A DNA stretch of 64,000 bases from Escherichia phage vB_EcoM_G2469, in the sequence record MK327934.1. One strand, written 5' to 3'. Position numbers and translations under genes: made by a program. A model generated the notes under the pieces. The model had not been told where the DNA came from. It saw only the letters and a list, made by a program, of their open reading frames with translations, and searched no databases. Of this stretch, positions 23,854 to 48,932 are shown piece after piece. Every line of letters begins with the position of its first letter. Position 1 is the stretch's first letter.

Positions 23854-24402
23854 TTAACGAGCCCATTTGATGATTTCTGTAATCAAACCATTACGTTCGC
23901 TTGCATTAAATCCTATAACTTTGTTAGCACCATCATGATTAAGTAATTGATATGTTTGGATTTTGTTATGAATTGCAAACTCTTCAAAATGTGAAATGAC
24001 TGTATTAAAACCGAATGAAGACAAAGTAATAAGGTCGTCTTCAAAACTTTCAGTCATTTCGTTACGTGTTAAAATAATTGTGAACACATCATGGTTTTGG
24101 CAAAGACGAACATAATCCTGTTCATAAACGTCAAGAACCGAGTCAGCATCTTGTCGAATACGTCCATAAACCCAGTTACTAATATATCCACGGTCTAACA
24201 GATAAATCTTAGTAGGGTCTAAATAATTCAACATCGTTTCGAAACAGCCAACTTCATTTCGAGACTTAACATCGAAACGCCCATCAACTGTTCGTTTAGG
24301 GAAATCAATCTTTACATATCTTTCACTAATTTCCATTATGTCATTAATGAAAGTTGTTTTACCAGCATTATCTGGGCCATCTACTAAAATAATTTTAGCC
24401 AT
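23854..24402 (-). CDS. P-loop nucleoside/nucleotide kinase-like protein
   Basis: 182 aa; Walker A ILVDGPDNAGKTT near N-terminus. Confidence 0.6.
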   Translation of the reverse strand: MAKIILVDGPDNAGKTTFINDIMEISERYVKIDFPKRTVDGRFDVKSRNEVGCFETMLNYLDPTKIYLLDRGYISNWVYGRIRQDADSVLDVYEQDYVRLCQNHDVFTIILTRNEMTESFEDDLITLSSFGFNTVISHFEEFAIHNKIQTYQLLNHDGANKVIGFNASERNGLITEIIKWAR

Positions 24403-24403
24403 T

Positions 24404-25303
24404 TTATTCCTCGATTACGACATCTTCATATTTAGGTATATTATACGGCGAAGAAATTAAAGCATTAAAGTAGATGAACTCACCAAGACCTGGATGGAAT
24501 ACTTCTTCAGGATTTTCGAAATATTGAATTTTCGGACGCCCTTTAAGAATTTGATAGTACTCTGTTTTAGTTGGTTTAAAAATTCGAATCAGCGCTTCTT
24601 CAGGATACTTATTTCTGTCGAAGCTATTATTTGGATCGGTTATATAAAGCGGTTGGCCTAATTGAATTGCACATTCAACCACTTGTTCAAAACGATAGCA
24701 CGGGTCACTAATTCGAAATGGATGAAAAATACCATCTAGATAAATAGGAGCCAAATCACCTACAAGACGCTGCATGATGGAAGGACGTATAACTTTCTGC
24801 GTTACGATAATCTTATTACCATCTGCACCAGCGTTAACCAGCACTTCTTTTTGACGTTCATTCAACACAGTAGTTTGAAGTGAACGATTAACCGACAACA
24901 TATCAGTTTTTAAGAATTCATCAATATAAAAACGTGGTTTATTAGGGTCTGCAGTGATATTGAAATTGAATTCCACATCAAAAGCGCCGTCATATCCAGT
25001 GATATCTGTGATTAGAAAATCACAGTCATAATAAGCAATTAATGAATCAACCACAAATTCATTTTCAGACCAGAAATATTTACGAGTGTTATACGCGTTA
25101 TCTTTATACCATAATGGAACAAACTTAAATTCTGGAAAAAGACGTTCGCATTCTTTAATATCAGATGCATTACGTGGATATGTAATCACATCACCCGGAT
25201 TAGCACGGTGCAAATGAAGTTGGAAGTTGCCATCCTTAAGGATAGCATACTGTCCAGTTTCATAAGACCGCATACTCAAAATAGGTACGCGGAAAATAGC
25301 CAT
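24404..25303 (-). CDS. hypothetical protein at the beta-gt position (possible second sugar transferase)
   Basis: 299 aa, no resemblance to T4 beta-gt seen; TAATG overlap with gene 42. Confidence 0.5.
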   Translation of the reverse strand: MAIFRVPILSMRSYETGQYAILKDGNFQLHLHRANPGDVITYPRNASDIKECERLFPEFKFVPLWYKDNAYNTRKYFWSENEFVVDSLIAYYDCDFLITDITGYDGAFDVEFNFNITADPNKPRFYIDEFLKTDMLSVNRSLQTTVLNERQKEVLVNAGADGNKIIVTQKVIRPSIMQRLVGDLAPIYLDGIFHPFRISDPCYRFEQVVECAIQLGQPLYITDPNNSFDRNKYPEEALIRIFKPTKTEYYQILKGRPKIQYFENPEEVFHPGLGEFIYFNALISSPYNIPKYEDVVIEE

Positions 25304-26019
25304 TAGTCAAGGAATCCTTTAACATAATCAAAATCACGTTCAAACACATGGGCACTTACCATGGTATGAGTATAATCACCAACTTCTACACCGCATTCGT
25401 TAGCGATATAATGAAGTAATTTTCCTTGGAGATAAAAATCCAACTGCATAACAACAGCACAGTTCTGAGAACGCATATGACAGTGGGTATAAAGCTTACC
25501 ATCACGAATATAATAAGTCACTGAGTCAGTACATGGATATTCAAGCGTTTCGTCTGAATCAAGCAAAGCCTGATCAGAACTTTCTAGAATTTGGAACACA
25601 ACTCTTCGGGAGTTAGGCTTCTCTTTAAGTTCTTTTAGAAGAGCTGGTAATTGGGCCGCAATGCGAGGACCATAGAAAGTGTTGAAGTTCGCCGGCAAAA
25701 CATCTGATTTTGGTTTAGAAATAAATTTAGCGACATTAGGATATGCCTTAAACGCTTCTTCTGCGTTGGTACCACCAGAAATCATAAACTTCCAGAAGTC
25801 TTCGGCATATTCATAAGAGATGCGGTTAATACGTGGGTCGGTCATTTTGAATGATGATGGAGTGTCAACAACTACTGTCATAGACCCAATTTCATTACAA
25901 CGTCCAATACGAGAATCAGTTACGAATTCCGGGTTTTCTAAAATTTCACGATTGACTGTTTTAAATGCGGTTTGAAAATCTGCGGCTTTGATATATTTCA
26001 TTGTGTTATGTTTTCCCAT
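25303..26019 (-). CDS. 42: dCMP hydroxymethylase (thymidylate-synthase fold)
   Basis: 238 aa; T4 gp42-like. Confidence 0.9.
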   Translation of the reverse strand: MGKHNTMKYIKAADFQTAFKTVNREILENPEFVTDSRIGRCNEIGSMTVVVDTPSSFKMTDPRINRISYEYAEDFWKFMISGGTNAEEAFKAYPNVAKFISKPKSDVLPANFNTFYGPRIAAQLPALLKELKEKPNSRRVVFQILESSDQALLDSDETLEYPCTDSVTYYIRDGKLYTHCHMRSQNCAVVMQLDFYLQGKLLHYIANECGVEVGDYTHTMVSAHVFERDFDYVKGFLD

Positions 26020-26061: not shown

Positions 26062-26301
26062 TTATTTGAATTTCTTGACAATGTTGATATAACGTAAAGC
26101 TTCAGCATCGATACTTCCAAGAACACTATGAAGAAATGCATCAGCGTAGTATTCCAATTGAACAGGTTCTTTAATCACTTTAGCCGCTTTAGTTTCAAAC
26201 AGGCCCATCAGGGCCTTTTTAAGAATTTGTTCATTAGTGTTCAGTTTAATAGTCAAAATCTCTTCATTAAGTTGGTGGTTAAAAGTTTTTCTAGAAATCA
26301 T
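26062..26301 (-). CDS. small hypothetical protein
   Basis: 79-aa ORF, ATG start, 4-nt overlap with next gene. Confidence 0.45.
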   Translation of the reverse strand: MISRKTFNHQLNEEILTIKLNTNEQILKKALMGLFETKAAKVIKEPVQLEYYADAFLHSVLGSIDAEALRYINIVKKFK

Positions 26302-27467
26302 TCCGGGTACCTCAAAGCGTCATCAGAGTTAGTTATATCAATAATAGATATAGAGTTTTCTGCTAACCCGTTTTTAGATAATTGACGTTTATAATATCTT
26401 TCACAATATGTACACGTCGTCCCGCAGATTTCATTAGCACAATCGAAATCCGGATGTCTGAACCACCTTTTTTCTAAAAAGCCATCTAACAAAGAGGTTT
26501 CAATATTTACTGTATGTGAAAACTCGGTCTCATTTTCAAGAGTGAAAATAGTCTCTAAAGGCTTCCACAGTTCTAACAAATTACCTTCAAACTTTTCAGA
26601 AGCGTATGCTTCAAGAACTTTCAAAATGTAGTCTGTGCTACCTGTACGTCCTGAAACTTTGAATTGAGTGATACCAATATCATTATAAAGTTTCAAATCT
26701 TGAGGACGAACAAAACGAGTTCTCAGCCAGTTAAATGGGTCTGTATCACGAGCTTTAATGCAGTGTTGCATTGGATATCCATTTAAGGATTTAGCATCAT
26801 CAGCGGTAACATCAGTACTATGGAAAATATAGCAAGAGTCACGATAGCTACAATGTGTTGTATACCCTTTACCAGCATTAGAACAGAACTCATTTACAAG
26901 AACTTCAAATATTATATTGTTCTTATTGCAAAACTCTGCTGCACGCTTCAGGAAAGAAACTGAACGGTTCTTATGAATTCCGCAGCAGACCTTTTTGATA
27001 TTATACTGGTCATGCAAGTATTTGATTTGAGTTACAGCATCGACATGTAGAATTGTTGAAACTTCAATCTCAATGTCTTTATTGACTTCACGAACAATTT
27101 CCATAACAACAGGGTTAGCGATAGTAATACGCCATACGCCTATTGACCAAAGATACTGAACATAATCCTGAATAGCTTTCTTCTTCCACTCAACTAGTTC
27201 TCTTTTTGAACCAGGATTTATCGTGTTGAGTGTATAGTTAAAGCAAATACCTAATTCGTTACAACGTTTAACGTAGTCTTCTAACATCTTTTTGTCAACG
27301 TCAGGAAGCCTAAAATCAGGTCTGGCTGCTACAAAAGCCATTTCTCTTGTAGAGCCATATACTTCGTTTATCAAGCTATTAGGATAGGTTTTATTGAGCT
27401 CTACGATTTTATCAAGAAGAGCTAAATCAAAATTCGTTCCGATTTTAAAAGTATTCATTTTTTGCAT
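26298..27467 (-). CDS. hypothetical enzyme with C-terminal Cys cluster
   Basis: 389 aa; C-terminal C-x4-C-x3-C-x2-C (CANEICGTTCTYC) contains CxxxCxxC; second CSxxxxxxxxHCSxxxxC stretch. Confidence 0.55.
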   Translation of the reverse strand: MQKMNTFKIGTNFDLALLDKIVELNKTYPNSLINEVYGSTREMAFVAARPDFRLPDVDKKMLEDYVKRCNELGICFNYTLNTINPGSKRELVEWKKKAIQDYVQYLWSIGVWRITIANPVVMEIVREVNKDIEIEVSTILHVDAVTQIKYLHDQYNIKKVCCGIHKNRSVSFLKRAAEFCNKNNIIFEVLVNEFCSNAGKGYTTHCSYRDSCYIFHSTDVTADDAKSLNGYPMQHCIKARDTDPFNWLRTRFVRPQDLKLYNDIGITQFKVSGRTGSTDYILKVLEAYASEKFEGNLLELWKPLETIFTLENETEFSHTVNIETSLLDGFLEKRWFRHPDFDCANEICGTTCTYCERYYKRQLSKNGLAENSISIIDITNSDDALRYPE

Positions 27468-27513: not shown

Positions 27514-27915
27514 TTATAGATTCGGTTTATACGATTTAAATGTTTCGAATTCGCCTTTATTCATAAGAGCTTTGAATTCGTCAGGACGCATAGCTTTGTC
27601 GTCGATAATCCAATCATATACTGGTTTATGTGTTAGCAAATTATGGTACTTCAAGCCAATGTTTGCCAAGTTCTGAATCAGACTTGGGAGAATGTCAATT
27701 GCTATACGACCAGGACCTACTGACTTCATACCGCGAGCAGTGTAAAGCGTTATGGTATGCCCTGCATCATACAGGGCATTAATGGCAGACACCATTTCGA
27801 CGTCTGGTTTGAAGTTCACGTAATCACGATTGTTATTCCACTCTGTTATACAATCATCGACATCAAAACAAAGATTAAGCATGTTTTCTACACGGTGCAT
27901 TAGATTCGTTCCCAT
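27514..27915 (-). CDS. HAD-superfamily phosphatase (GmhB/KdsC-like)
   Basis: 133 aa; motif I FDVDDCIT near N-terminus; alternative start at 27900 in TAATG overlap. Confidence 0.6.
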   Translation of the reverse strand: MGTNLMHRVENMLNLCFDVDDCITEWNNNRDYVNFKPDVEMVSAINALYDAGHTITLYTARGMKSVGPGRIAIDILPSLIQNLANIGLKYHNLLTHKPVYDWIIDDKAMRPDEFKALMNKGEFETFKSYKPNL

Positions 27916-29585
27916 TGATGAGTGATATCGCCACCGATTGGACGATAGGAAACACCAGTTTCTTTATCAGTTAGTACCCATTTACCAGGATTTTTTGTAA
28001 TCAGAGTAGCCGTTACAGGTTCTGCTACGTCATAACTAATAGAGCCGTCCTGAAGTACACGGCCCATGTTACGTAATTGCTTAGTCAGAAGTTCCATACC
28101 TTTATAATATGCGGCTACCGCTTTAAGTGGATTATTCTTGAAATAACCACCTAATGCAATCCAGATAATTGCCACAGCCAAATGATGATATTCATTAAAC
28201 GAACTCAGCTTTCCATATTTGTAAACTAATGGATTGATGTTAATAGTCACATTACAAGTTGTTTCATCAATAGTAAACTGTCCCCAGGTCGGATTAGCAT
28301 TGAATTCATCATAACCTGAAACAGCATAAAGCACTTTAGCTTCATCATACAATTTTGGCCCGTAAATCTTGGTTTCACCAAAATATCCACGAGGGTCGAT
28401 AAATTTGACTTCGCCGTTATCAGTAATCATAGTATTACTGAAGTTCGGGTCACCATGAATAACAGAGTACTGTCCCTGAGAACGGTTATGATAACGAATA
28501 AGGTGTTCTAAAGCTTGTTTCAGCATTGGCTTCAGACGTCCAATCTTAGTGTAGTTCACATGTGTGATTTTACCAAATGAATCAATCAATGGTTGAATGC
28601 TTTCACAACGATCAATAACTTTCGTATAGAATTCTTTAGTGAAATCACGACGAACAGTTTCAGGACTTACAAAATAAGTGTCTGTGCTGAATTTCAGTGC
28701 ATCTAAAATTGCATCAACAATTTGTGGACGAGCAAGACTTGATTTGGATTTAATATATTCAAATGCCGGCTTACCTTTAATGCGTTCCATTTCAAAGTTA
28801 TTTTCATTAACAGAAACTAACTGAGGAACTGAATCTGATTTCACTTTAAGATACCATGAAATCTCATCTTTCTGAAGAGCTCGACCTTGTTCAGTTAATG
28901 CGAATTTAGTTACAGTTTCTTCACCAATTTCAACTGCATTAAAACTACGATTAAGTTCACGAACTTCATGAGCCTTTTCAAGTTTAGGCATATCACCAAG
29001 GTCGATGATATTCATAAGCTCTGATTTATTGAATGCGCCGCTGTAAAGGAATTCTACGAAATCACGTCCTTTGCAGTATTCATGAATTTCCTCATCGGTA
29101 GAACCCATGTAGAATTCCCAGTCTTTGAACTGGTAAATTCCCACAACATTACCACCTGTTGAACCTACGTTAGTGATATTTTCACCATCGAAATTATATC
29201 GACATTCGTCACCCTTAACATAGATTGCGTTAACATTCCAAGACCATGAACCAAAATCAGGAATAATATCACACCAGTTAACAATTACGTTATGGCCGTC
29301 TAAATCTTTGTGTAATTTAGCAAGAGCATAAGCAGAACCATACGCTTCATCGACTGTACGAATAGTCACATTGAACCCTTCTTGCTCACAATAAGCTCGA
29401 ACAGTTTCAGCAAATTTTGAATGAACTACTACAATAATTTCATCTGCGCCAAGGTCAGAATAAATTGTATACAAATTGCTCAGAATAGTGTCTTGTTTAT
29501 AGTTAACAAGCACCTTAGGAATATGGTGAGTAATTGGATATAAACGAGTTGCCAATCCAGCACCAAGAATAACAGCTTTTTTCAT
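27900..29585 (-). CDS. bifunctional sugar-phosphate nucleotidyltransferase / sugar kinase
   Basis: 561 aa; N-terminal MKKAVILGAGLATRL nucleotidyltransferase signature; C-terminal HGDPNFSN...IDPRG kinase motif. Confidence 0.75.
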   Translation of the reverse strand: MKKAVILGAGLATRLYPITHHIPKVLVNYKQDTILSNLYTIYSDLGADEIIVVVHSKFAETVRAYCEQEGFNVTIRTVDEAYGSAYALAKLHKDLDGHNVIVNWCDIIPDFGSWSWNVNAIYVKGDECRYNFDGENITNVGSTGGNVVGIYQFKDWEFYMGSTDEEIHEYCKGRDFVEFLYSGAFNKSELMNIIDLGDMPKLEKAHEVRELNRSFNAVEIGEETVTKFALTEQGRALQKDEISWYLKVKSDSVPQLVSVNENNFEMERIKGKPAFEYIKSKSSLARPQIVDAILDALKFSTDTYFVSPETVRRDFTKEFYTKVIDRCESIQPLIDSFGKITHVNYTKIGRLKPMLKQALEHLIRYHNRSQGQYSVIHGDPNFSNTMITDNGEVKFIDPRGYFGETKIYGPKLYDEAKVLYAVSGYDEFNANPTWGQFTIDETTCNVTININPLVYKYGKLSSFNEYHHLAVAIIWIALGGYFKNNPLKAVAAYYKGMELLTKQLRNMGRVLQDGSISYDVAEPVTATLITKNPGKWVLTDKETGVSYRPIGGDITHQWERI

Positions 29586-29626: not shown

Positions 29627-29770
29627 CTAGTTAAAGCATTCATACTTTGCTTGTAGTCCAATCATAATCCATCCAATTACAAGTGTTGGAATCATTACCG
29701 GAGCCGTTAAGCTCCAGTAGATAGTCATGACAAGCATCAATAGTAAAAGTCCTATTGTTATTGCTTTCAT
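29627..29770 (-). CDS. small membrane protein (47 aa), not in ORF track
   Basis: MKAITIGLLLLMLVMTIYW...; ATG overlaps upstream stop as ATGA. Confidence 0.35.
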   Translation of the reverse strand: MKAITIGLLLLMLVMTIYWSLTAPVMIPTLVIGWIMIGLQAKYECFN

Positions 29771-30402
29771 TGTTCGCCTCGTAACATGGCACCTAGTGCA
29801 CCGCCTGGATGGAACTTAAGGAAATCATTAGAGGTAAATCCACGTTCAGACGAAAGGTTGATAGCAAACGTATCGATAAGCGCTAACAACAATGTAGTGG
29901 ACATTGTCGGAGCTAAAGAGTTCTCGTCAACTTCTACCGCGATACCAGTACAGAACGTATAATCAAAAAGAGCTTCGTATTCTTGTGGAATGTCAGGGTT
30001 ACAATGTAACAGAATCTGTTTAACCTGAGGACGAATCATACGAAGATGTTTAGCAACACCTATCATTTCTTCAGTCTTACCAGAACGACTAATATGAATC
30101 AACACGTCATTAGGTGCAATAAATCCTGCGTCACCATGAGAATAATGCCCAGTGTTCAAATACATGCTAGGAATACCTAGTGAAGCAAATGTCTCGGAAG
30201 CTTTAGTTGCGATATTAGCATTCTTACCAACACCTGTAATAATTACCCGGCTTTCATAATTACTAAGTCCAGGGCGTCGAAGAGTTTCTAGAATAGCATT
30301 ATAACGAGCAGGGTTTTGACTAATTACTTTGGCCATAGCGGCCAAAGAAGAAGCTTGTTTTATGATTGCGTCAATAGCGATAGTAATAGGAGTAGTTTTC
30401 AT
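29767..30402 (-). CDS. SIS-domain sugar-phosphate isomerase (GmhA/KdsD-like)
   Basis: 211 aa; SIS motifs VGKNANIA and HISRSGKTEE. Confidence 0.75.
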   Translation of the reverse strand: MKTTPITIAIDAIIKQASSLAAMAKVISQNPARYNAILETLRRPGLSNYESRVIITGVGKNANIATKASETFASLGIPSMYLNTGHYSHGDAGFIAPNDVLIHISRSGKTEEMIGVAKHLRMIRPQVKQILLHCNPDIPQEYEALFDYTFCTGIAVEVDENSLAPTMSTTLLLALIDTFAINLSSERGFTSNDFLKFHPGGALGAMLRGEQ

Positions 30403-46177: not shown

Positions 46178-46648
46178 TTAATCATGTTTCCACACCCCAT
46201 CGGTATTTGACCAAAGTCGCTGATTATCTGATCCTCGCCACAGCTTTTTAGTCGGAAGATTTTTCTCATACTTCCCATCAATAATAACATCAACATATTT
46301 AAGCATTTCTAGTTGTTTAATATCTTCAAACTTATATCCTGTCCACAACCAAATGCTTTTATTGGGATAAAGATTTTTTACTGTTTGAGCAATGCAATGA
46401 ATAACATCTCGGTTATCAGGATAGAGAGGGTCACCTCCGGTTATAGTTAATCCTTCTATATAATCATTATTCAAACATTCAATTAATTGTTCTAGTGTTT
46501 CACCAGTGAATGGAACACCATTTCTAGCATTCCATGTTGATTTATTATAACACCCTTCGCATTTATGCAAACAACCCGTAACGAAAAGAACGACCCTGCA
46601 TCCGGGGCCATTCACAAAATCGCAAGGATAAAATCTATCATAATTCAT
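46178..46648 (-). CDS. nrdG: anaerobic ribonucleotide reductase activating protein (radical SAM)
   Basis: 156 aa; CxxxCxxC-type cluster TGCLHKCEGC. Confidence 0.9.
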   Translation of the reverse strand: MNYDRFYPCDFVNGPGCRVVLFVTGCLHKCEGCYNKSTWNARNGVPFTGETLEQLIECLNNDYIEGLTITGGDPLYPDNRDVIHCIAQTVKNLYPNKSIWLWTGYKFEDIKQLEMLKYVDVIIDGKYEKNLPTKKLWRGSDNQRLWSNTDGVWKHD

Positions 46649-48462
46649 TGGTGTTTAACCCTATGCATGATTTCTTTATTTTTACCGAGATTAAATCCGC
46701 GTTCGTTCGGATTTCCCAAATAACCGCATGTTCTTCTTATGGTGTTCATCTTTTTAGGATCAGTTTCTCCACAGATAGAACAAACAAATCCGTTTTCAGT
46801 AGGAGTCATTTCATGGGTACTTCCACATGTAAAACATTTATCTACTGGCATATTAACACCAAAATAATCTAAATGTTGTGCAGCATAATCCCAGACGGCC
46901 TCAAGTCCTTTTAAGTTATTTTTCATATCAGGAAGTTCAACATAAGAAATGTGACCACCTGTCGCAATGAAATGATATGGCGCTTCACGAGAAATCTTTT
47001 CAAACGGAGTAATATTTTCTTCTACTGAAACGTGGAAACTGTTAGTGTACCAGCCTTTATCGGTAACATCTTTTACACTTCCATATTTTTCTGTATCGAG
47101 TTTACAGAAGCGATAACAAAGGTTTTCAGCAGGAGTAGAATACAAACTAAAAGCAAAACCAGTTCTTTCAGACCACTGTTTAAGATGAGCATTCATTTTA
47201 GTTAAAATTTCTTGTCCAATATCACGACCGACAAGAATATTCAATTCGTGAATACCAATGTATCCTAAAGACACTGAACTTCTACCGTTTTTAAATAACT
47301 CAATTATGTCGTCATCAGGTTTAAGACGAACCCCGAATGCACCTTCTTGGTAAAGAATAGGAGCAACAGTTGCTTTAACACCCTTTAAAGAACTAATTCT
47401 ACACATCAAGGCTTCAAAACACAGATCCATTCGTTCATTAAACAATTCGATAAATTTCTGTTCATTGAACTGTGTTCCAATATAAGAATCTAATGCGATA
47501 CGAGGAAGATTCAGTGTTACAACACCAAGATTATTACGTCCATCAAGAATTTCATTACCGGTTGAATCTTTCCACACACTCAAAAAACTGCGGCAACCCA
47601 TTGGAGAAACAGGAATAGATGAGCCGGTGATAGCTTTATTGTTCTTAGCTGAAATAATATCAGGATACATTCTTTTGCTTGCACATTCTAACGCAAGTTG
47701 TTTAATATCATAGTTCGGATCATCTTTATAAAGATTAACACCTTCTTCAACAAACATAACAAGCTTAGGGAAAATAGGAGTTATCCCATCACGACCAAGA
47801 CCTTTAATACGATTTTTCAGAATTGCTTTCTGAATCATTCGTTCAGTCCAGTCAGTTCCCGTACCAAATGTAATTGTTACAAAAGGCGTTTGCCCGTTTG
47901 AACTAAAGAGAGTGTTTACTTCATATTCATAAGCTTGGAATGCATCGTATACATCTTTTTCTGTTTTAGATTGAGCATAATTCAACGCATCAGCGATTTG
48001 CCATTTTTCTGCATCCTCAATATGTTTTGCATAGGTGCGTTTAACATAAGGAGAAAGTACTTTATCTACATTAGCAAAAGTCGTTCCGCCGTATTGGTGG
48101 GAAGCAACTTGTGCAGTAATTTGTGCCATAATTGCAGTAGCAACACCAATCGATTTAGGCGTTTCAATTTGAGCATTGCCTAATTTAAATCCGTTCTCAA
48201 GCATCCCCTTTAAATCGACTAAACAGCAATTAGTAAATGGAAGAGCAGGGGAATAATCAATATCGTGGAAATGGATAATTCCGCTTTCATGTGCTTTCAT
48301 AATAAAAGACGGGACCATATTTTTGGCAATGTGTTTAGACACAATACCAGCCATAAGGTCCCGTTGAGTTGGAAAAACACGAGAATCTTTATTAGCATTC
48401 TCGTTTAAAAGGTCTTTATTAGTTTTATTAATCAGTCCTTCAATTTCTTTTTCAATTTTCAT
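46645..48462 (-). CDS. nrdD: anaerobic ribonucleoside-triphosphate reductase
   Basis: 605 aa uninterrupted; C-terminal glycyl-radical motif RTCGYLG and zinc site CFTCG...CSIC. Confidence 0.95.
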   Translation of the reverse strand: MKIEKEIEGLINKTNKDLLNENANKDSRVFPTQRDLMAGIVSKHIAKNMVPSFIMKAHESGIIHFHDIDYSPALPFTNCCLVDLKGMLENGFKLGNAQIETPKSIGVATAIMAQITAQVASHQYGGTTFANVDKVLSPYVKRTYAKHIEDAEKWQIADALNYAQSKTEKDVYDAFQAYEYEVNTLFSSNGQTPFVTITFGTGTDWTERMIQKAILKNRIKGLGRDGITPIFPKLVMFVEEGVNLYKDDPNYDIKQLALECASKRMYPDIISAKNNKAITGSSIPVSPMGCRSFLSVWKDSTGNEILDGRNNLGVVTLNLPRIALDSYIGTQFNEQKFIELFNERMDLCFEALMCRISSLKGVKATVAPILYQEGAFGVRLKPDDDIIELFKNGRSSVSLGYIGIHELNILVGRDIGQEILTKMNAHLKQWSERTGFAFSLYSTPAENLCYRFCKLDTEKYGSVKDVTDKGWYTNSFHVSVEENITPFEKISREAPYHFIATGGHISYVELPDMKNNLKGLEAVWDYAAQHLDYFGVNMPVDKCFTCGSTHEMTPTENGFVCSICGETDPKKMNTIRRTCGYLGNPNERGFNLGKNKEIMHRVKHQ

Positions 48463-48932
48463 TTTAAACTCTTTCTAAGCTGCTTTTTGAATGAAGCTAT
48501 TAATTGTGTTTTAGTATCAGATTCATTATATTCAAATCCTCTTTGAAGCATCTCGGTCATCATTTCCTCTTTACCTAGTCTTGAGAACTCTTTAGTTTTG
48601 TCTGGAACAAAATTAGGATGGATATTATTAGCAGAATAATCTTGTTTCAAATAAGCAAGAAGAGCTTCAAGCCATTCGAGGTAGTCGACATCACGACCTT
48701 TAAGACCAGAACGGTTGAACTTATGCTTCATTTGGCCTTCTGCTGCGTTGCACAGAGAACAGAGTAACCCACGAACTCTACCGGCTTTTGGCCCGTTTAA
48801 TTCATGGTCGTGGTCAAGATGGTTACCTTGAACATCAGGGTCTAATTCACGGTGGCAAATAGGACACTTACCATTCTGTGCATCATAAAATTTTTGTTTT
48901 TCTTCTTTATATTTTGCGCCTGATAATAACAT
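48459..48932 (-). CDS. 49: endonuclease VII (Holliday junction resolvase)
   Basis: 157 aa; zinc and H-N-H motifs CPICH...HLDHDH...CSLCN. Confidence 0.85.
   Translation of the reverse strand: MLLSGAKYKEEKQKFYDAQNGKCPICHRELDPDVQGNHLDHDHELNGPKAGRVRGLLCSLCNAAEGQMKHKFNRSGLKGRDVDYLEWLEALLAYLKQDYSANNIHPNFVPDKTKEFSRLGKEEMMTEMLQRGFEYNESDTKTQLIASFKKQLRKSLK

Follow-up and report, generated by a model that had tools for sequence, protein, structure and literature searches.

RB69-type phages, whose hosts are gut bacteria, replace every cytosine of their DNA with arabosylated 5-hydroxycytosine (5hoC) and thereby evade restriction and CRISPR. To our knowledge, the only hydroxylase known for RB69-type 5hoC requires O2. 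We analysed 64,000 nucleotides (the window) of Escherichia phage vB_EcoM_G2469 (sequence record MK327934.1), a Mosigvirus (RB69-like, T4-type coliphage), in which a gene on the minus strand at 26298..27467 encodes the orthologue of RB69 gp50 (RB69p050), and we propose that this protein is probably an O2-independent counterpart of that enzyme. In RB69 DNA the modified base was shown to be 5-hydroxycytosine bearing one or two arabinoses (mono- and di-arabinosyl), and not hydroxymethylcytosine (Lee et al. 2026, PMC13326640). The ThyA homologue gp48 binds flavin and makes 5-hydroxy-deoxycytidine monophosphate (5-hydroxy-dCMP, 5hodCMP) with oxygen derived from 18O2, and gp48 with a kinase suffices for aerobic 5hoC (PMC13326640). 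In the same paper gp50 appears in Table 1 only, as a 'Sugar or heterocycle reductase', a label drawn from its fold match to 5d88, with no mention in the text; the Discussion refers to RlhA and TrhP as 'two other pyrimidine hydroxylation pathways' and leaves the kinship of gp50 to them unremarked (PMC13326640). The entry for RB69p050 in an earlier survey read 'homologs among peptidases', and the Thanatos, Durham, 2018 RB69 and 2021 Tevenvirinae papers contained nothing functional on gp50.

RlhA, TrhP, UbiU and UbiV are U32-family proteins. RlhA requires E161 and the aligned cysteines C169 and C176, C-terminal cysteines, iron-sulfur (Fe-S) biogenesis and prephenate (PMC5727448). Prephenate donates the oxygen for UbiU/UbiV, a role that has been put forward for it in every U32 protein (PMC10990095). 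For the TrhP and TrhO routes, anaerobes were found to have only the U32 route while facultative organisms have both (Sakai et al., PMC6599085). U32 prephenate-dependent hydroxylases are therefore already known; our literature search, the coverage of which stopped short of He et al. 2026 and Mahler et al. 2025, returned no paper linking U32 proteins to phage 5hoC, and within that coverage a phage-borne U32 subfamily with its own four-cysteine tail, tied to DNA glycosylation and to a phage supply of prephenate, is undescribed.

From the U32 fold and family, the conserved cysteine sets, the gene neighbourhoods and the host distribution, all of which were observed directly, we infer that gp50 is probably an O2-independent, prephenate-dependent dCMP C5-hydroxylase, with a rough probability of 0.57; that gp50 binds Fe-S, uses prephenate, works without O2 and has dCMP as its substrate belongs to this proposal and shares its uncertainty. 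Structure prediction and profile searches, the checks put forward in an initial annotation of this DNA, both returned the U32 fold and family. The Peptidase_U32 model PF01136 matched residues 97-289 of gp50 with 42.2 bits (E 7.4e-11, gathering score 22.4) and was found in all listed homologues but three with no recorded domain (P0062, P0091, P0117). The predicted structure is a U32 TIM barrel, for which U32 proteins were the clear best fold match and the top matches consisted of U32 and CutC barrels. In profile comparison with the Escherichia coli paralogues (hhalign), RlhA was best (Prob 73.5%, E 2.9e-5, 203 columns), with gp50 E193, C206 and C212 aligned to RlhA E161, C169 and C176, and the other paralogues scored far below it (TrhP, Prob 12.8%; UbiU and UbiV, 6% and 0.3%). 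A scan of gp50 against NCBIfam gave a single match, to UbiU at 18.4 bits against a cutoff of 440, and reached neither an RlhA nor a TrhP family model, while the Pfam scan detected no DUF3656, no U32_C and no DNA-binding domain. A direct sequence search of the PDB gave nothing meaningful and the PADLOC defence models gave zero matches. Clustering at 50% identity left 487 representatives of the subfamily at E<=1e-30, and by these sequence comparisons the gp50 type is a separate, mostly phage-borne U32 branch outside the RlhA, TrhP, UbiU and UbiV orthologous groups.

Two other functions have to be weighed against this family assignment. Many GenBank records label the gene as a true peptidase or collagenase (PrtC type), in keeping with the family name and with labels such as 'peptidase' and 'collagenase-like protease', but the name stems from a few disputed collagenase reports, the characterised members are hydroxylation factors, no catalytic mechanism has been defined for U32 'peptidases' and the genomic context is one of nucleotide and DNA modification, so that we regard this function as extremely improbable. 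Since RlhA is the best paralogue match, and T4-like phages are generally known to carry transfer RNA (tRNA) genes and translation modifiers, gp50 could instead be a phage RlhA- or TrhP-like RNA hydroxylase acting on host or phage ribosomal RNA (rRNA) or tRNA and tuning translation. We consider this quite improbable, as gp50 is without DUF3656 and the RlhA C-terminal region and reached neither family model, the neighbours conserved across unrelated phages are DNA glycosyltransferases and enzymes of the deoxynucleoside monophosphate pool and not tRNA or ribosome genes, and the U32 gene moves as a cassette inside the DNA-modification cluster.

The cysteines of gp50, 13 in 389 residues, had attracted attention in the initial annotation, which described a C-terminal C-x4-C-x3-C-x2-C cluster and a second stretch loosely resembling U32 motifs. 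The C-terminal pattern is exact (C343-ANEI-C348-GTT-C352-TY-C355), and the second stretch, CSNAGKGYTTHCSYRDSC, is present at residues 195-212 and lies in the U32 core motif. This core motif, residues 193-236 (26760..26891, minus strand), reads E193-F-C195...H205-C206-x2-R209-x2-C212-Y-x2-H216...Y-P-M-x2-C236 and holds the first invariant set of four cysteines; the second is the C-terminal cluster, residues 343-355 (26403..26441, minus strand), of the form C-x4-C-G-x2-C-x-Y-C, which was modelled well (predicted local distance difference test score, pLDDT, 92-94). The cysteine pattern is no coincidence: in 72 homologues with a mean column identity of 53%, C161, C195, C206, C212, C236, C343, C348, C352 and C355 were invariant. 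Loss of these cysteines in homologues had been named beforehand as one outcome that would speak against a metal-dependent step; in 21 sequences that cover all genomic contexts, the most distant at 38% identity, the cysteines still invariant numbered exactly eight (195/206/212/236 and 343/348/352/355), and E193, R209, H216, G273-R-T and W301-K302 were invariant as well, G276 nearly so. An apparent loss of C206/C212 in distant members was rejected: hmmalign had placed the residues out of register in a loop rich in indels, and the three core cysteines are kept in the raw sequences. By analogy of sequence, the two sets probably bind one or more Fe-S clusters.

A resemblance of the CxxxCxYC part of the C-terminal cluster to radical S-adenosylmethionine (SAM) sites had also been noted, and on that reading gp50 would be a non-canonical radical-SAM-like enzyme whose cluster binds SAM as in ThiC or Dph2. 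This is very improbable, because C343 is as invariant as the other cysteines of the set, the U32 family was the clear best fold match and the Radical_SAM model PF04055 did not match gp50, although it did match the NrdG of the window. Among 132 full-length cluster representatives, moreover, 106 carried the motif, with the second and third cysteines separated by three residues in 53 and by two (C-x2-C-x2-C) in the other 53, a variation that points to a four-ligand site and not to a radical-SAM motif. Beyond the cluster, the Straboviridae versions have a C-terminal tail of about 25 residues (residues 366-389, 26301-26372, minus strand) which is missing from most other lineages. Most of these Straboviridae versions finish with ...DDxLRYPE or something close to it, and the confidence of the model falls to 60 at residues 371-380; this tail may be a docking peptide.

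Gene neighbourhoods were surveyed on 47 viral, 3 metagenome and 13 genome contigs encoding gp50 relatives, and the neighbouring proteins were clustered. The commonest partner of the U32 gene was a DNA glycosyltransferase of the gp46:47 type, present in 41 of 51 loci. A ThyA of the gp48 type was found near the U32 gene only in the 16 Straboviridae-like loci; within +/-10 kb there was no ThyA-type hydroxylase in the 34 non-Straboviridae viral or metagenome loci, one of which has a canonical ThyA, and none was detected in the 13 genome-contig loci. One group of phages of about 40-50 kb ('type B') encodes primase, MazG, a Tmk-like kinase, a glycosyltransferase, the U32 protein and PolIII alpha with zero sugar-synthesis genes, a gene order typical of base-modification pathways, with U32 standing where a ThyA-type enzyme is usual. 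The MazG of the unrelated phages that pair it with U32 is dCTPase-like. Conversely, Straboviridae without the U32 gene (Bp7, Konradin, PspYZU05 and Kosakonia 305) keep the isomerase-AfhE-HAD-ThyA-glycosyltransferase-kinase series and have neither U32 nor chorismate mutase; the two genes are thus gained and lost together as a cassette, and neither is needed for the arabinose chemistry.

These neighbourhoods also bear on the main rival explanation, in which the chemistry is the same and the substrate is a polymer, gp50 hydroxylating cytosine (or uracil) in DNA after replication much as rRNA and tRNA are modified by RlhA and TrhP. Polymers are the substrates of all nucleic-acid U32 hydroxylases characterised so far, the closest partner glycosyltransferase acts on DNA, and in a second family context the U32 gene adjoins a gene for a weakly DNA-glycosylase-like protein. 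A supply at the nucleotide level is, however, what the RB69-type destruction of deoxycytidine triphosphate (dCTP) and the complete replacement of cytosine would fit, the recurrent MazG/dCTPase-like, dUTPase/DCD, dCMP deaminase and Tmk-like kinase neighbours handle mononucleotides, and Pfam detected no domain by which gp50 would bind DNA. We judge a polymer substrate to be unlikely and retain free dCMP as the preferred one.

Genes for the supply of prephenate stand beside the U32 gene in three or more phage lineages that are unrelated to one another. In 13 of 17 Straboviridae-like loci a Pfam-verified mini chorismate mutase (36-50 bits against a cutoff of 27) adjoins it in the slot held by gp49 in the window, and in six jumbo-phage loci a chorismate mutase of 107 residues (55 bits) overlaps the U32 stop codon. 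A DAHP synthase-chorismate mutase fusion (PF00793 and PF01817, e.g. 84.8 and 86.1 bits) lies beside the U32 gene in loci L029, L031/32, L034 and L043, and a DAHP synthase does so in L002, L018 and L063. The mini chorismate mutase of the gp49 slot occurred in 51 of 50,697 GenBank phage records, all rows listed being U32-bearing genera, and its neighbours, where their labels were informative, were a peptidase/U32 gene and a thymidylate-synthase gene. E. coli makes its own prephenate through PheA and TyrA. The possibility that the chorismate mutase feeds a CmoA/carboxy-SAM pathway (PMC12783734) was set aside, there being no CmoA- or CmoX-like gene among the annotated clusters near U32 genes, where no search was aimed at them.

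The distribution of the gene among hosts is consistent with a function without O2. The U32 gene was present in 221 GenBank phage records, all of them Straboviridae whose hosts, Enterobacterales or Shewanella, are facultative anaerobes, and the gp48-type enzyme in 373 records that include 57 Acinetobacter and about 20 Rhizobium/Agrobacterium phages, no phage of these hosts being among the 221 U32 carriers. Among 185,579 species-representative genomes, the gp50 subfamily was found on just 13 contigs. The bins to which these belong are for the most part those of obligate anaerobes (Erysipelotrichales, Oscillospiraceae, Romboutsia, Tannerella, colon Clostridia, Angelakisella and a Phocaeicola faecalis isolate), and several of the contigs carry the same modules. 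The window itself encodes an anaerobic ribonucleotide reductase, NrdG (156 residues) and NrdD (605 residues, glycyl-radical motif RRTCGYLG), at 46178-48462 on the minus strand, in tandem with endonuclease VII (46178-48932 as a whole), and the phage thus invests in anoxic deoxynucleotide supply. At the syntenic site nrdD/nrdG were absent from Bp7, Kosakonia 305, Konradin, PEi26 and Marfa, and neither these genes nor the endonuclease VII anchor was found in the stretches of TG1, PspYZU05 and Thanatos-2 that were examined. TG1, PEi26 and Marfa therefore carry U32 without NrdDG at the site examined, while the synteny of Thanatos-2 differs.

Should gp50 be the dCMP hydroxylase that we propose, the phage dCTPase would supply dCMP and gp50 would oxidise the base by two electrons, passed through the cysteine-ligated cluster or clusters. 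Prephenate would decarboxylate and deliver hydroxide to yield 5hodCMP and phenylpyruvate, the oxygen source being that proposed for RlhA, TrhP and UbiU/UbiV, after which kinases and the DNA polymerase would incorporate 5hoC and the gp46:47-type transferase would glycosylate it. Among the Straboviridae that infect facultative anaerobes, Mosigviruses included, gp50 would then act as the anoxic counterpart of the O2- and flavin-dependent gp48, and in phages of obligate anaerobes the gp50 type would be the only hydroxylase.

A number of observations weigh against this proposal. The assignment as a hydroxylase is our interpretation of sequence comparisons, in which the match to RlhA was moderately significant with one sequence as target and the NCBIfam match to UbiU reached 18 bits. 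No U32 enzyme has so far been reconstituted in vitro (PMC10990095), and those characterised as hydroxylases use RNA polymers or a lipid quinone and not free nucleotides. Aerobic 5hoC is already accounted for by gp48 and a kinase (PMC13326640), and the existence of U32-less coliphages such as Bp7 makes the gp50 gene accessory. The Mosigvirus of the window has no chorismate mutase partner, its gp49 being unrelated to chorismate mutase. The absence of ThyA-type enzymes from non-Straboviridae phages covers the +/-10 kb around the U32 gene and not whole genomes, and the host-oxygen pattern rests on few clades. Finally, NrdD/NrdG occurred in 3 of 6 genera with U32 and in 0 of 4 without it, a difference that was not significant (Fisher p = 0.17; syntenic regions only).

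A broader proposition, to which we give somewhat less than even odds, is that phages of anaerobes share a widespread O2-independent DNA-hypermodification pathway in which U32 proteins of the gp50 type serve as the primary C5-pyrimidine hydroxylases, with prephenate boosted by phage DAHP synthase and chorismate mutase as auxiliary metabolic genes, and that in RB69-like phages the same enzyme is the anoxic twin of the gp48 enzyme. If gp50 is indeed an O2-independent, prephenate-driven hydroxylase, the modification could be made in anoxic niches such as the oxygen-free gut, and the 'organic O-donor' chemistry of U32 proteins would extend from RNA and quinones to DNA precursors. The phage chorismate mutase and DAHP synthase genes would have a function, hundreds of uncultured anaerobe-phage lineages would be flagged as likely hydroxy-pyrimidine-based DNA modifiers, and oxygen-dependent differences in phage DNA modification would be predicted, which is relevant to gut phage therapy. 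As the substrate would be a small soluble nucleotide, gp50 would moreover offer the first opportunity to reconstitute a U32 hydroxylase directly in vitro.

The gp50 ORF starts with ATG, spans 389 codons and has its stop codon within 26298..27467; it had been recognised in the initial annotation, to which we add the strand, the opposite (plus) strand over the same interval being full of stops. An in-frame ATG at codon 4 (start at 27458; MNTFK...) is the start of most homologues and of the GenBank annotation in phage HY126, so that the product of this U32-family gene, a proposed pyrimidine C5-hydroxylase, may be 386 residues long. The protein is 99.7% identical to that of HY126, where the gene is labelled 'hypothetical protein', and the 6.6-kb stretch around it has 98-99.3% identity to many Escherichia and Shigella phages. 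The stop codon of gp50 overlaps the start codon of gp49 (ATGA), and gp49 (26062..26301, minus strand; 79 residues; phrog_8601) is thereby translationally coupled to it. The gp49 slot is that of chorismate mutase in the sister Straboviridae genera (L006-L019); gp49 was tried as a degenerate chorismate mutase and rejected (hidden Markov model (HMM) score 0.6 bits, hhalign probability 0.6%).

As the initial annotation had indicated, the gene lies inside the sugar pathway cluster, which is entirely on the minus strand and is transcribed in the order isomerase, AfhE-type, HAD phosphatase, gp50, gp49, ThyA-family, glycosyltransferase and thymidylate-kinase-like. On one side are the arabinose-5-phosphate isomerase of the gp55 type (29767..30402; SIS domain PF01380 and annotations), the bifunctional nucleotidyltransferase-kinase of the gp52:53/AfhE type (27900..29585; 561 residues; PF00483 and kinase-family matches; PMC13326640) and the HAD phosphatase of the gp51/AfhF type (27514..27915; PMC13326640). 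On the other are the ThyA-family 5-hydroxy-dCMP synthase of the RB69 gp48 type (25303..26019; PF00303), flavin- and O2-dependent and with its function known by experiment for RB69 gp48 and the HY126 homologue (PMC13326640), the DNA arabinosyltransferase 1 of the gp46:47 type (24404..25303; 299 residues; assignment from PMC13326640) and the thymidylate-kinase-like nucleotide kinase of the gp45 type (23854..24402; assignment from PMC13326640, Table 1). The glycosyltransferase and the nucleotidyltransferase-kinase are single intact ORFs, in agreement with the conclusion of PMC13326640 that the gp46/47 and gp52/53 splits of RB69 are sequencing errors. A scan of the cluster for promoters and terminators gave matches no commoner than in shuffled sequence.

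The position of gp50 between the arabinose-activation genes and the transferase, the co-occurrence of AfhE-like proteins (33 of 51 loci) and isomerase (22 of 51) with the U32 gene and the reductase label of PMC13326640 Table 1 could all be taken to favour a redox or other metal enzyme with the sugar or the glycosylated base as its substrate, which covers both the 'sugar or heterocycle reductase' label given by Lee et al. and the epimerase, dehydratase or oxidase suggested in the initial annotation. Such a step is improbable. The products of RB69 and DLP3 are plain arabinosyl-5hoC, tri-arabinosyl in DLP3 (PMC13326640), and DLP3 lacks the gene; the U32-less Straboviridae retain all sugar genes, the unrelated type B phages carry the U32 gene with no sugar-synthesis genes, and the chorismate mutase and DAHP synthase neighbours would be left unexplained. 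Of the initial interpretation as a whole, the U32-like motifs and the conserved cysteine clusters were supported, and the sugar chemistry and the radical-SAM reading were not.

Some U32 loci elsewhere have modules of a different composition. On a Phocaeicola faecalis scaffold (L070:3044-7134) a GP88-family gene (PF17338), a guanylate-kinase and SAM-methyltransferase fusion and a protein of about 267 residues precede the U32 homologue, and L060, L066-L069 and L071 have the same layout. The protein of about 267 residues has a weak likeness to archaeal 8-oxoguanine DNA glycosylase (1xqo, E 0.0035). The gene order suggests that a nucleotide or DNA base is first hydroxylated and then O-methylated, and if the broader pathway exists, this operon of guanylate kinase-methyltransferase, glycosylase-like protein and U32 would point to 5-methoxy-type DNA bases. 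One contig of this group, from a Bacillota metagenome-assembled genome, carries a further, divergent U32 paralogue some 4 kb downstream of the first (L060:13227-14357; 111 bits to the family HMM). In a 466-kb jumbo-phage contig (L001:944-11086) the U32 homologue follows genes for MazG/dUTPase-like, radical-SAM/SPASM, 402-residue glycosyltransferase-like, thymidylate kinase, uracil-DNA glycosylase, PolIII alpha and dCMP deaminase proteins, which looks like a different, possibly more elaborate base modification. In L003:7777-16179 and L026 the U32 gene lies between glycosyltransferases (Gly_transf_sug, TAGT-like), dUTPase/DCD and UDP-galactopyranose mutase with no ThyA-type gene nearby, which suggests a galactofuranosylated hydroxypyrimidine, compare the galactofuranose-containing 5hoC of Rhizobium phage RL38J1.

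Mk0906, the Methanopyrus kandleri U32 protein (PDB 5d88) to whose fold gp50 had been matched, is 14% identical to gp50 over 247 residues and does not cover its C-terminal 100 or so residues, which include the four-cysteine cluster. UbiU and UbiV are U32 proteins that each hold a [4Fe-4S] cluster through four cysteines and are anaerobic counterparts of flavin/O2 hydroxylases, but they form a heterodimer that acts on a prenylated phenol with the assistance of UbiT, whereas gp50 is a single chain with eight conserved cysteines and very weak similarity to them. The 5hodCMP synthase of the RB69 gp48/HY126 AfhA type (ThyA superfamily), encoded 279 bp downstream, makes the product that we propose for gp50, although its fold is unrelated, it uses flavin, and its oxygen comes from O2 by 18O2 labelling; the function of gp48 is experimental and that of gp50 is predicted.

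The closest likeness is to RlhA (YdcP), the E. coli 23S rRNA 5-hydroxycytidine C2501 synthase, which shares with gp50 the U32 barrel and the aligned E...C-x6/7-C-Y-I-x-H motif. The aligned cysteines of RlhA are essential, further essential cysteines are C-terminal, and its prephenate- and Fe-S-dependent product is cytosine hydroxylated at C5. RlhA differs in its length (653 against 389 residues), in the presence of DUF3656 and in its rRNA substrate, while gp50 has a compact four-cysteine tail, no DUF3656 and a setting in a DNA-modification cluster. TrhP and TrhO, which make 5-hydroxyuridine at position 34 of tRNA (ho5U34), differ in their tRNA substrate and in that the O2-dependent partner, TrhO, is a rhodanese and not a flavin-dependent ThyA homologue. 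They nevertheless present the same arrangement of a U32/prephenate O2-independent route beside an unrelated O2-dependent route to the same C5-hydroxypyrimidine, and the distribution of gp50 and gp48 among phages mirrors that of TrhP and TrhO.

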